Below are positions 217 through 28,351 of a stretch of DNA of 64,000 nt, piece after piece. The position numbers and the translations under genes are program-made. The DNA comes from an uncultured Anaerolineaceae bacterium (GTDB lineage: Bacteria > Chloroflexota > Anaerolineae > Anaerolineales > DRMV01): NCBI GenBank assembly GCA_964446575.1, contig CAYUOX010000072.1, forward strand, positions 3,327 to 67,326, given 5' to 3'. Each line of letters opens with the position of its first letter. Within the stretch, counting starts at the first letter, position 1. The notes beneath the pieces are model-generated. The model saw nothing but the letters and a program-made list of their open reading frames with translations. It ran no database searches and was not told where the DNA came from.

Positions 217-551
217 GTCACAAGCAACCGTAGCCGACGAATCAGCCAATGCTTCCCAGAAAGGAGGTGAAACCGCATCAAACGATAAACCCTCGTTGCC
301 AAATCCCTGATTTAGAAGGAGGTGTTGGGCGAGCCACTTCAAGCGATGGAAATCGAACATCCAAGCCGTGAGGAGGCGTCATTGATGAGCATAACTTCCG
401 CATCATCCTTCTAAGTGAGGAGGTGTTGTTGACCCCGAATGGCCCCTGATTGGTCATCCCCCACGCAAGGAGGTGCTTATCGAGGAACATCCGTAGTTCT
501 TCTCCCCCTACCTCCCCAGCAAGCCGAGGCCGGCATGGCCTCGGCTTTTTG
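217..551 (+). ncRNA. Candidate ~330-nt non-coding RNA with five Shine-Dalgarno-complement boxes, ending in an intrinsic terminator
   Basis: No credible ORF. (A/G)AGGAGG(T/C)G boxes have GGAGG starting at 263, 318, 372, 419 and 469. Promoter-like TGcTACAGT/TATAAG at 202-215. CCTACCTCC at 507-515. Hairpin plus T-run at 521-551. The 5' end is a guess. Confidence 0.35.
521..551 (+). terminator. Intrinsic terminator
   Basis: AAGCCGAGGCC (521-531) pairs with GGCCTCGGCTT (537-547) around a 5-nt loop. The T-run extends to 550. Confidence 0.8.
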
Positions 552-6816: not shown

Positions 6817-8355
6817 ATGGACTTCCTGACCAACCACTTGCTCACGCTGATTCTGTTCACGCCCCTTTTGGGCGCGGTGGTGCTGTGGTTCCTGCCCGAC
6901 GACAAGAAGACCCAACGTTGGGCCGGGTTCCTCTTCAGTTTGGTGCCTTTGGCCCTGACCTTGTGGCTGTGGGCCCGTTTCGATTTCGCCCGCGCGGCCG
7001 AATTCCAGTTCCAAGAACGGGCCGTGTGGTATGGCCCCATCAACGCCTCCTATCACTTGGGCGTGGATGGGGTGGCCTTGACCATGGTCCTGCTGACCAC
7101 GTTCTTGACGCCCTTGGCGTTGCTGGCCTCTTTCTCGGTGCAAGACCGGGTCAAGGTGTATTACATGCTCTTCCTCTTCCTCGAGACGGGCATGCTGGGC
7201 GTGTTTCTCTCCCTGGACTTGATGCTGTTCTTTGTGTTCTGGGAGATCGGCCTGGTGCCCATGTTCTTCCTCATCTTTCTGTGGGGCAGCCCCAAAGGGG
7301 AGCGGCATGTTTGGCCTGGCCTGACGGTGCCTTCGCGGGTGTATGCCGCGTTCAAGTTCATGATTTACACCATGGCCGGTTCGCTGGGGCTGTTGCTGGC
7401 CATCCAAATGCTGGGTGTGGTCACGGGCACGTTCGACCTGCCCACGGTCATCGAGCGGTGGAATCAAGCCTCGGGCACTATCTTGGGTTTTGAGGCCAGC
7501 ACCCTCAAGGCCATGGCCTTTTGGGCCTTTGCCATTGCCTTCGCGCTCAAAGTCCCGGTGTGGCCCTTCCACACCTGGTTGCCCGACGCCCACACCGAGG
7601 CGCCTACCGCGGGCTCTATGATCCTGGCTGGCGTGCTGCTGAAACTGGGCGCGTTCGGTTTCCTGCGCTTCGTGTTGCCCTTATATCCCGAACAGGCCAA
7701 GCAGTACGCGGCCGCGTTGGCCTTTATGGGCATGATGGCCATCATCTTCGGCGCGTTCGCGGCCTGGGGCCAAGAGGACTTCAAGCGCCTGGTGGCTTAC
7801 TCGTCGGTGAACCACATGGGTTTCGTGGTGCTGGCCATCGCCGCGGCCGCGTGGGCTGCTGGCACCGAGCACGCCAACATCGCGCTCAATGGCGCGGTGC
7901 TGCAAATGTTCAACCATGGCCTGACCGCGGCGGGCATGTTCTTCTTGGTCGGCGCCATTTACGAGCGCGCCCACACTCGGGAACTCAAGAAATTCGGCGG
8001 CTTGTTCGGCCACATTCCCGTGTATGCGGGGATGTTGGTGTTTACATCCATGGCCTCGCTGGGCTTGCCCGGCCTCAACAGTTTCGTGTCCGAATTCCTC
8101 ATCGTGCGAGGGGCGTGGCCGGTGTTCCAACTGTTCACCGCGCTGAGCATGATTGGCTTGCTCATCACCGGCGCCTACATTCTCAAGGGGATCAAGGATG
8201 TGCTCTTTGGGCCTTTGACCGAGTTGGCCGACCATCTGACCGATTTGACCCTGCGCGAAGTGTTGGTCATGGTGCCGCTCATGGCGCTGATGCTGATCTT
8301 GGGCGTGTGGCCCATGTGGTTACTGGAAGTCATCAATCGGGCCGTGGGCGGATAG
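6817..8355 (+). CDS. nuoM: NADH-quinone oxidoreductase subunit M (copy 1)
   Basis: 512 aa. YHLGVDGVALTMVLLT, FWEIGLVPMFFLI and HTWLPDAHTEAPTAGSMILAG are NuoM/ND4 motifs. Confidence 0.95.
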   Translation: MDFLTNHLLTLILFTPLLGAVVLWFLPDDKKTQRWAGFLFSLVPLALTLWLWARFDFARAAEFQFQERAVWYGPINASYHLGVDGVALTMVLLTTFLTPLALLASFSVQDRVKVYYMLFLFLETGMLGVFLSLDLMLFFVFWEIGLVPMFFLIFLWGSPKGERHVWPGLTVPSRVYAAFKFMIYTMAGSLGLLLAIQMLGVVTGTFDLPTVIERWNQASGTILGFEASTLKAMAFWAFAIAFALKVPVWPFHTWLPDAHTEAPTAGSMILAGVLLKLGAFGFLRFVLPLYPEQAKQYAAALAFMGMMAIIFGAFAAWGQEDFKRLVAYSSVNHMGFVVLAIAAAAWAAGTEHANIALNGAVLQMFNHGLTAAGMFFLVGAIYERAHTRELKKFGGLFGHIPVYAGMLVFTSMASLGLPGLNSFVSEFLIVRGAWPVFQLFTALSMIGLLITGAYILKGIKDVLFGPLTELADHLTDLTLREVLVMVPLMALMLILGVWPMWLLEVINRAVGG

Positions 8356-27976: not shown

Positions 27977-28237
27977 AGCCGCTTGAGGGCTGTTCGAAAA
28001 ATCGACGTATCACCATGAGCCGTGGTTTGGCCCCATGCCCTGCGGGGTCCATCTGGAGCGCTGCGCGGAACGACCCCCGGAATCGATCGCCAATAGAGAA
28101 AGCGGCCGATTCACTCCGGTTTGTTTTTCCAACGGCCCTCCATACCCTGGAGGGCATCCGAAAATCCCCATTTGGCTCTCCTTCCCTCTGTGCTCTCCGC
28201 GTCCCTGGGTGAAATTTTCGAACACCCCTCGAGTGGC

Positions 28238-28266
28238 TTGACGCTGGCGGGAGGTTTTGGTAGAAT
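28238..28266 (+). promoter_or_regulatory. Near-consensus promoter TTGACG-N17-TAGAAT for tRNA-Glu
   Basis: -35 at 28238-28243 and -10 at 28261-28266. The tRNA 5' end is 14 nt downstream. Confidence 0.75.
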
Positions 28267-28279
28267 GCAGGGCGTGAGT

Positions 28280-28351
28280 GCCCCCATCGTCTAGGGGTTA
28301 GGACACGGGCCTTTCAAGCCCGCGGCCGGGGTTCGAATCCCCGTGGGGGCA
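28280..28351 (+). tRNA. tRNA-Glu (anticodon UUC), CCA not encoded
   Basis: The cloverleaf was folded by hand. The acceptor stem is GCCCCCA/TGGGGGC. The anticodon stem is CGGGC/GCCCG with loop CTTTCAA. The T arm is CGGGG-TTCGAAT-CCCCG. The discriminator is A, followed by CAG. Confidence 0.95.

Follow-up and report, generated by a model that had tools for sequence, protein, structure and literature searches.

The CsrB, CsrC and RsmX/Y/Z families of small RNAs (sRNAs), which occur mainly in Gammaproteobacteria, are stand-alone genes with a regulated promoter, an intrinsic terminator and many short GGA purine motifs that turn over, and 6S RNA, which mimics open promoter DNA, sequesters RNA polymerase. 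In the stabilising Shine-Dalgarno (STAB-SD) element of Bacillus thuringiensis cry3A (Agaisse & Lereclus 1996; Mathy et al. 2007; both as reviewed in PMC4113751), a single non-initiating Shine-Dalgarno (SD) sequence lying within a coding mRNA's 5' untranslated region (UTR) binds the 30S subunit via the 16S rRNA 3' end and shields the RNA from RNase J1 (PMC4113751). OLE RNA, highly structured and ~600 nt long, contains an intramolecular mimic of the duplex between SD and anti-SD (ASD), P6, that binds ribosomal protein bS21 (PMC12054373); RosA, a sponge for RoxS and FsrA in Bacillus subtilis, mimics an SD region (PMC8216469); and regulatory or toxic minigenes, such as phage lambda bar and the axe-txe minigene (PMC8708949), couple a strong SD to a single AUG-started open reading frame (ORF) only a few codons long, in which the act of translation, and not the peptide made, has the effect. 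Here we describe a locus at positions 217-551, on the + strand, of a 64,000-nt (64-kb) stretch of contig CAYUOX010000072.1 (assembly GCA_964446575.1) from an uncultured Anaerolineaceae bacterium of the Chloroflexota; we call the whole stretch the window and the locus the element. Judged by its sequence, the element has its closest functional parallels in sponge or decoy sRNAs and in STAB-SD, but it is a member of neither class, since it matches no CsrB/Rsm model and lacks the downstream coding sequence that STAB-SD requires.

Like STAB-SD, the element carries SD sequences that do not start a gene and are complementary to the 16S 3' end, with the 30S subunit as the partner proposed here. The differences are that STAB-SD is one element in the 5' UTR of a coding mRNA, whereas four to five boxes lie here on a predicted transcript without coding sequence, in another phylum. 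This would not be the 5' UTR of an mRNA, as the terminator at 521-551 precedes the downstream genes, which encode CutA in the window and a transposase in the other species that carries the element. With the CsrB/Rsm RNAs it shares the layout of a stand-alone sRNA gene with short purine motifs and motif turnover, a putatively regulated promoter and an intrinsic terminator, but its boxes are full SDs of 8-9 nt rather than (A)GGA in hairpin loops, and its sites are far fewer and more widely spaced. The first-pass annotation of this DNA, which likened the locus to a CsrB/RsmZ-type sponge, thus captured the multivalent motif layout, while the lack of an Rfam match and a conserved SD complement reaching beyond GGA set it apart from that family.

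Our preferred reading, which we hold tentatively and at somewhat below even confidence, is that the element encodes a multivalent ribosome-binding-site mimic that binds 30S subunits, either as a decoy or in a STAB-SD-like manner; the partner is probably the ribosome or another reader of the SD motif. We infer transcription, binding partner and physiological effect from the following features, which were compared with a single orthologous element, found at 7692-8028 of locus L131 and met again as L132 and L140.

113-150, + strand: block AGCAAGATTTTTGTCAGATA upstream of the promoter, kept in the orthologue; direct repeats (GCAAGA/GCAAGC) occupy 113-118 and 145-150.
161-200, + strand: hairpin and T-run closing the upstream radical-SAM operon, the 5' boundary of the unit; inverted repeat 161-168/189-196, then TTTT.
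176-212, + strand: promoter region recognised by conservation, comprising CTGAAAGTCGAAAAC (176-190, -35 area) and TTTTGTGCTACAGTAT (197-212).
217-551, + strand: predicted non-coding primary transcript of ~335 nt, running from conserved promoter to terminator; its 5' end is a prediction.
261-269, + strand: SD box 1, AAGGAGGTG, in the context GAAAGGAGG; aligned with orthologue box A, L131 7755-7763.
316-324, + strand: SD box 2, AAGGAGGTG; pattern match.
370-378, + strand: SD box 3, GAGGAGGCG; pattern match.
385-414, + strand: the sole AUG-started mini-ORF, MSITSASSF, 8 nt after box 3; absent in the orthologue.
417-425, + strand: SD box 4, GAGGAGGTG; pattern match.
467-484, + strand: SD box 5 (467-475) plus extension, AAGGAGGTGCTTATCGAG, the most conserved unit; 18/18 identical to L131 7952-7969.
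507-520, + strand: C-rich ASD-like box CCTACCTCC (507-515) with conserved core CCTCCCCAGC (511-520); core kept at L131 7984-7993.
521-551, + strand: intrinsic terminator, stem 521-531/537-547, T-run 546-550; stem conserved, loop different in L131.

Counting the pattern RAGGAGGYG on the + strand returns these five 9-nt boxes, packed into 215 nt (four copies of AGGAGGTG and one of AGGAGGCG), as the first-pass annotation had claimed, and the claim also withstands shuffling. Both strands of the 64-kb window together hold 11 occurrences of the pattern, against 2.23 expected. None of 300 dinucleotide shuffles of the window gave a 9-mer cluster of at least three per 250 nt, compared with five in the real window, and none of them gave five AGGAGG. 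Bare GGAGG is a weak statistic, with clusters of at least four per 250 nt in 86 of 200 shuffles; because such pentamer clusters are common in shuffled sequence, significance rests on the 6- to 9-nt box. The element is the sole place in the window with at least four GGAGG per 250 nt. Tandem Repeats Finder called no array in the window element, whose units share little besides the box.

The orthologous element follows the gene for P0128, the closest relative of the window's radical-SAM (rSAM) enzyme (64.5% protein identity). At four-fold degenerate sites the identity between the two rSAM genes is 34.6%, where composition alone predicts 31%, which means that neutral sites have reached saturation. 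At this divergence both species have kept all 16 nt of the promoter block, box 1, all 18 nt of the last unit, CCTCCCCAGCA and the terminator stem, and the interior of the element can no longer be aligned yet still bears SD boxes. The orthologue has four boxes to the window's five (GGAGG at L131 7757, 7796, 7851 and 7954), every mini-ORF differs, and its other units are paralogous variants of its last unit. The interior has undergone motif turnover, as in sponge RNAs. Conservation at saturated divergence indicates that selection keeps the promoter, the boxes (neither their number nor their spacing), the extended unit, the C-rich box and the terminator. SD boxes as the selected feature fit the earlier idea of a motif-driven decoy or sponge RNA.

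The even spacing noted in the first-pass annotation holds in the window, where boxes are 47-55 nt apart, and breaks down in the orthologue, where the intervals are 39, 55 and 103 nt; that annotation had named beforehand the conservation of box periodicity in relatives as something on which its finding depended, and the periodicity is not kept. Spacing also bears on whether the boxes act as DNA, bound by a regulator for which the neighbouring STAND NTPase would be an example, or form a functionless cluster. Direct repeats every 47-55 bp, about five helical turns, and a STAND NTPase gene nearby would suit such sites, but the intervals differ in the other species, a domain search of the STAND protein found no DNA-binding domain, and the motif is exactly an SD on the strand with the conserved promoter and terminator. 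That the sequence is kept while neutral sites are saturated speaks against neutrality, and we regard both of these explanations as very improbable.

Across the nine boxes of both species, position 1 is A, G or C, positions 2-7 (AGGAGG) are invariant, position 8 is U in seven of nine and C in the other two, and position 9 is G in all except one, which has A. AAGGAGGUG fully complements the canonical 16S 3' tail CACCUCCUU, with the host tail assumed to be canonical. Box conservation covers this complement and reaches beyond GGA, which points to an RNA partner bearing CACCUCCU(U), with the 30S subunit as the obvious candidate. By sequence the boxes are complementary to the 16S 3' end and mark the start of no gene, as in STAB-SD, with no conserved ORF behind any of them. 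Several ARGGA-type motifs whose number and position turn over between a promoter and a terminator are also the layout of CsrB/RsmZ and of sRNA sponges, and a sponge for a non-ribosomal partner, either a CsrA/RsmA-like GGA-binding protein or a C-rich ASD-like sRNA (as with RosA on RoxS), has to be considered. Bacillus provides a precedent for an SD-mimicking sponge of a C-rich sRNA (PMC8216469), and the element resembles sponges of the RosA type in being a decoy that is G-rich and SD-like, has a transcript to itself and might titrate a C-rich regulator. Those sponges have one or two sites, whereas perfect 9-nt SDs occur here four to five times. This explanation is weakened by conservation that spans the whole 16S-tail complement rather than GGA, by the absence of an Rfam CsrB/Rsm match and by the presence of only four to five sites per ~330 nt, predicted mostly in stems rather than in hairpin loops. 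In addition, a regular expression for the CsrA signature, admittedly a weak test, found no match in the six-frame translation of the 64-kb window, and no cluster of C-rich motifs was found on the DNA examined. We consider a non-ribosomal sponge unlikely.

The first-pass annotation saw no credible ORF in 217-551, and comparison with the orthologue bears this out. A six-frame comparison found no shared ORF, all frames being interrupted, and tblastx matches between the two elements are restricted to the boxes and the terminator. The longest frame in the element, a 70-amino-acid (aa) minus-strand ORF at 281-490, was rejected as a gene, as it is broken in the orthologue and has no relatives in 1.84 billion representative proteins, where the search matched giant repetitive proteins only. 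Pfam found no domain in this ORF or in a 40-aa plus-strand ORF. There is likewise no conserved small-protein gene common to the two species. Searches of the window and the orthologue with Rfam covariance models, at gathering and at permissive thresholds (E up to 10), returned only unrelated chance matches and thus no known family. An antitoxin RNA of a type III toxin-antitoxin system (ToxI-like) was rejected as well, given that there is no tandem array and that the downstream gene differs between species. As a separate observation, an open frame runs from an ATG at 439 to 942, across box 5 and the terminator and in frame with cutA; we treat this extension as chance, the cutA start at 601 having its own GGAGG SD. 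By its conservation pattern, then, the element looks like a real locus under selection that does not encode a protein.

What follows the boxes is a set of very short frames. In the window, box 1 is followed by AUC and 3 codons, box 3 by AUG and 9, box 4 by UUG and 6, and box 5 by AUC and 5; box 2 has no start at 3-10 nt. Over all nine boxes, the codons 4-9 nt downstream include AUC, AUU or AUA in seven cases, UUG in three and AUG in one. Post-box ORFs run to 2-13 codons, except for a pair of alternative frames that start with AUU and have 22 and 35 codons; the peptides are unrelated. Such starts and short frames suit 30S capture without productive translation and equally suit a minigene array, in which a polycistron of very short ORFs (2-13 codons) would matter through the act of translation and not the peptide, possibly by loading ribosomes, by causing peptidyl-tRNA drop-off or by sensing how faithful initiation is (as in lambda bar-type minigenes or at AUU starts sensitive to IF3). 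A start-like codon lies 4-9 nt after every box other than window box 2, with an early stop behind it; stops often fall just 5' of the next box or overlap it; and AT[ACT]GA[AGT] (AUH-GAR) stands 4-7 nt after all four orthologue boxes (P = 0.008). Read in this way, the array would resemble known minigenes in joining a strong SD to an ORF of a few codons whose translation would be what counts, although those are single and AUG-started, whereas the frames here begin mostly with AUC, AUU, AUA or UUG and come four to five in tandem. AUC, AUU and AUA are poor initiators, GUG is absent (0/9), neither the peptides nor the lengths of the ORFs are conserved, box 2 lacks a start within usable distance, and about half of random sequences would give some start-like codon in the same interval. 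We accordingly rate a minigene array as unlikely, though a serious competitor of 30S capture. Of the poly-micro-ORF transcript suggested in the first-pass annotation, only the form in which translation itself is the function remains, the peptides not being conserved.

The flanks of the element are consistent with a separate RNA. The GC content of the element is ~0.51, compared with ~0.60 in the genes on either side. At its 5' side, TTTTGTGCTACAGTAT is identical at 16 of 16 positions to L131 7692-7707, the upstream block CTGAAAGTC(G/A)AAAAC is also kept between the two species, and in the orthologue, too, a terminator follows the stop codon of the rSAM gene. A consensus sigma-70 scan of the element called no promoter. 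The perfect conservation of TTTTGTGCTACAGTAT favours an extended -10 of the form TG-n-TACAGT at 202-210 as the likely core; the promoter-like element that the first-pass annotation placed at 202-215 therefore does coincide with a conserved promoter block, with TGnTACAGT favoured over its TATAAG assignment. At the 3' side, the hairpin at 521-547 forms 12 GC-rich pairs followed by a T-run, with a local fold z of -5.4, and together with stem conservation these properties substantiate the strong intrinsic terminator reported earlier at 521-551. The minus strand has no T-run. Because the terminator works on the + strand only and the conserved promoter lies at its 5' side, the RNA would be read from the + strand; these findings support a unit complete in itself, from promoter to terminator, and we expect a separately transcribed, regulated RNA of about 320-335 nt.

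Regulation is suggested by the block AGCAAGATTTTTGT(C/G)AGATA, conserved in both species with its GCAAGA direct repeats. Repeats of the GCAAGA type number two in the window, 32 nt apart, and three in L131, at 7608, 7630 and 7640 (spaced 22 and 10 nt). The block (113-150 in the window, 7600-7650 in L131) lies ~70-100 nt 5' of the predicted start of the element, and it may contain transcription-factor sites, its arrangement resembling a response-regulator-type binding site. Similar modules, in which a terminator T-run passes into TTTTGTG...CAGTATAA, occur at 194-215 and 546-566, one 5' of the element and one 5' of cutA, and may be a duplicated terminator-promoter junction. The tRNA gene at 28280 contrasts with these modules in having a canonical promoter, TTGACG-17-TAGAAT, at ~28237-28266.

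Two further motifs had been proposed as internal partners of the boxes. The ASD-like box CCTACCTCC at 507-515 is present as described; what is conserved is CCTCCCCAGC at 511-520. The pentamer (A/C)ATCC does occur at 302, 358, 404, 455 and 488 (P ~0.011 against shuffles of the region), but the orthologue shows no enrichment of it (2 copies, P = 0.31), so that part of the earlier description is not conserved. Whole-element folding gives z-scores of -2.3 for the window and -0.6 for the orthologue, which is no better than its shuffles, and such weak global folds fit a function of linear motifs. Most boxes fall in stems in the predicted folds, which are not alike in the two species; in all nine boxes GGA follows AA, GA or CA. 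In local minimum-energy folds of both species, the last GGAGG pairs with the CCUCC box (7 bp and 5 bp), corresponding in the window to box 5 (467-475) with 511-517. Both arms of this SD:ASD pair are invariant between species and thus carry no covariation signal. Intramolecular pairing of an SD with CCUCC, as in OLE, is in this way predicted here too: an SD-like segment would pair with CCUCC(U) inside a non-coding RNA and imitate the mRNA-16S duplex. OLE differs in its high degree of structure over ~600 nt, and the element shows no homology to it (no Rfam OLE match), only one of its four to five boxes being pairable.

The conserved C-rich box also enters a further explanation, in which the SD boxes are stabilisers only, STAB-SD-like roadblocks against a 5'-exonuclease, and the regulatory seed lies elsewhere, for example in CCUCCCC, which would act on mRNAs as an ASD-like seed. 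Box 1, in its context GAAAGGAGG, is ~45 nt from the predicted 5' end, STAB-SD is known to bind 30S and block RNase J1 (PMC4113751), and CCTCCCCAGC is conserved and adjoins the terminator, all of which would suit a stabilised RNA with a C-rich seed. One 5'-proximal SD would suffice for that purpose, however, and four to five are kept along the RNA; box 5 is the predicted pairing partner of the C-rich box, and a search for CACCTCCTT-like targets in the mRNAs of the neighbouring gene cassette found no intergenic site within the cassette. We consider stabilisation as the only role of the boxes quite improbable.

If the element acts by binding 30S subunits, exposed boxes would each base-pair with the ASD tail of a subunit. 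Mostly near-cognate codons (AUC, AUU, AUA or UUG) follow the boxes and stops come within a few codons, so productive translation would not ensue, and the RNA would hold the subunits as a multivalent ribosome-binding-site mimic. Bound 30S subunits would also protect the RNA, as with STAB-SD elements, and the 3'-most box could alternatively pair with the internal CCUCCCC box before the terminator to form an SD:ASD duplex. The outcome could be either titration of initiation capacity or mere self-stabilisation.

Several points weigh against this reading. The host 16S rRNA lies outside the window, so a canonical tail is assumed. The boxes are mostly paired in thermodynamic folding (probability of being unpaired, 0.01-0.38), although this is what any G-rich motif would be expected to show. 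The AUH-GAR extension after the boxes could mean real initiation, or a protein that reads a longer motif, and it may be shared through unit duplication only. Only two species carry the element, which limits the assessment of covariation and of wider conservation. Titration of ribosomes requires a very high RNA copy number, and we know of no dedicated 30S-decoy RNA. A bolder form of the proposal, which we think has a small chance of being right, is that the element is just such a decoy, a translational counterpart of 6S RNA carried by, and induced with, the adjacent island of STAND NTPase and radical-SAM genes. The likeness to 6S RNA is hypothetical and one of concept, in that the substrate of a core machine would be mimicked, here a ribosome-binding site for the 30S subunit; there is no homology, and 6S RNA works via a conserved structure whereas this locus would work via repeated linear motifs.

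The neighbourhood of the element was followed on an identical ENA contig, L001, as the window begins 14 nt past the stop codon of a gene seen there. Over 620 nt the window and L001 show one difference, G/A at 245, in the 5' leader of the element. The genes upstream on L001 encode a 444-aa protein, a 1023-aa STAND NTPase (AAA_16/TPR) and a 505-aa radical SAM/SPASM enzyme, and in both species the element stands directly 3' of the rSAM gene. Names given to relatives of the rSAM enzyme and of NuoH likewise point to the Chloroflexota. Downstream in the window are cutA (601-942), a 258-aa gene and the nuo operon, whereas the gene after the orthologous element (L131:8125-8811) encodes a UPF0236/Mutator-family transposase, which fits a location of cassette and RNA in mobile or accessory DNA. 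The RNA would then be part of an accessory island with a P-loop/STAND NTPase and radical-SAM/SPASM cassette. Cassettes of this kind lie in Chloroflexota at L001:268-6349, L131:71-7515, L134:250-7470 and L143:1-6533; they comprise two proteins of ~380-465 aa with weak P-loop/STAND-like matches, a STAND NTPase of ~1020-1060 aa (AAA_16 + TPR) and a radical SAM/SPASM enzyme of ~490-510 aa, to which the L143 cassette adds a GNAT acetyltransferase.

This setting raises the question of whether the element is the mRNA of a precursor peptide for the adjacent radical-SAM/SPASM maturase, as in ribosomally synthesised and post-translationally modified peptide (RiPP) systems. The enzyme resembles peptide maturases: its best NCBIfam matches are DynA, nif11-type and PapB, all under their cut-offs, and its AlphaFold (AF2) model (pLDDT 83) has anSME, CteB, ChlB, TigE and SuiB as nearest structures and an RRE-like N-terminal domain. 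The position of the element directly behind the rSAM gene in both species would also suit a precursor. Yet no ORF or peptide motif is common to the two species, the frames are of 2-13 codons with mostly non-AUG starts, and related cassettes at 37-52% identity do without the element, so we give a RiPP precursor hardly any weight. No precursor-peptide gene was found in the cassette loci, and an all-against-all comparison of small ORFs across them was uninformative, yielding only off-frame echoes of real genes.

The search for homologues, besides the one orthologue, indicates a restricted element. Cassettes whose rSAM enzymes are 37-52% identical (L133, L134, L141, L142 and L143) do not have it. 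Relatives of CutA and of NuoH (the latter 92-93% identical) keep the CutA-nuo order, with neither cassette nor element 5' of cutA; the gene order in the NuoH 92-93% lineages is peptidase/PrsW, CutA, nuo. A three-box pattern gave at least 120 matches in GTDB genomes; among the matches listed, 110 lie in open frames (EEV-type coding repeats) and the remaining 10 represent tandem arrays of no relation to the element or repeats of CRISPR-like type, with no homologue among them. In viral contigs (IMG/VR) the same pattern met coding repeats or ordinary small phage genes, and a pattern for the conserved 3' domain found, in JGI metagenomes, the known orthologue and three chance or coding matches only. 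Searches with blastn against phage and plasmid collections matched nothing, and an nhmmer profile of the two orthologues recovered only the known copies from all fetched loci. In two lineages, then, the predicted RNA gene accompanies the 3' end of an accessory cassette, and its distribution in the collections searched is very narrow. Unrelated non-coding AGGAGG arrays were seen at L036:2768-3300 (Paenibacillus thermotolerans), L123:1-480, L098:6250-6700 and L107:2100-2750; in these, near-identical units, each 52-53 nt long and containing a hairpin, are arranged in tandem, and the L123 unit, AGGAGGCGCCATGATTGATG, combines an SD with ATG.

To our knowledge, no bacterial RNA has been described that is dedicated to several perfect ribosome-binding sites while encoding nothing. 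The orthologue pair offers a natural experiment in which a promoter, SD boxes, one SD:ASD pair and a terminator outlast saturating divergence, and the uncharacterised Chloroflexota cassette of STAND NTPase and radical SAM/SPASM enzyme that adjoins the element provides a lead to the function of both. If the dedicated decoy is real, free initiation-competent 30S subunits would be soaked up on four to five ultra-strong dead-end SD sites, and translation would be throttled in stress or in an island-triggered, perhaps defensive, response. Should the boxes bind 30S subunits, the element would represent a natural global control of translation initiation via substrate mimicry, and even in the most modest case it would carry the STAB-SD principle over to an RNA that stands by itself.

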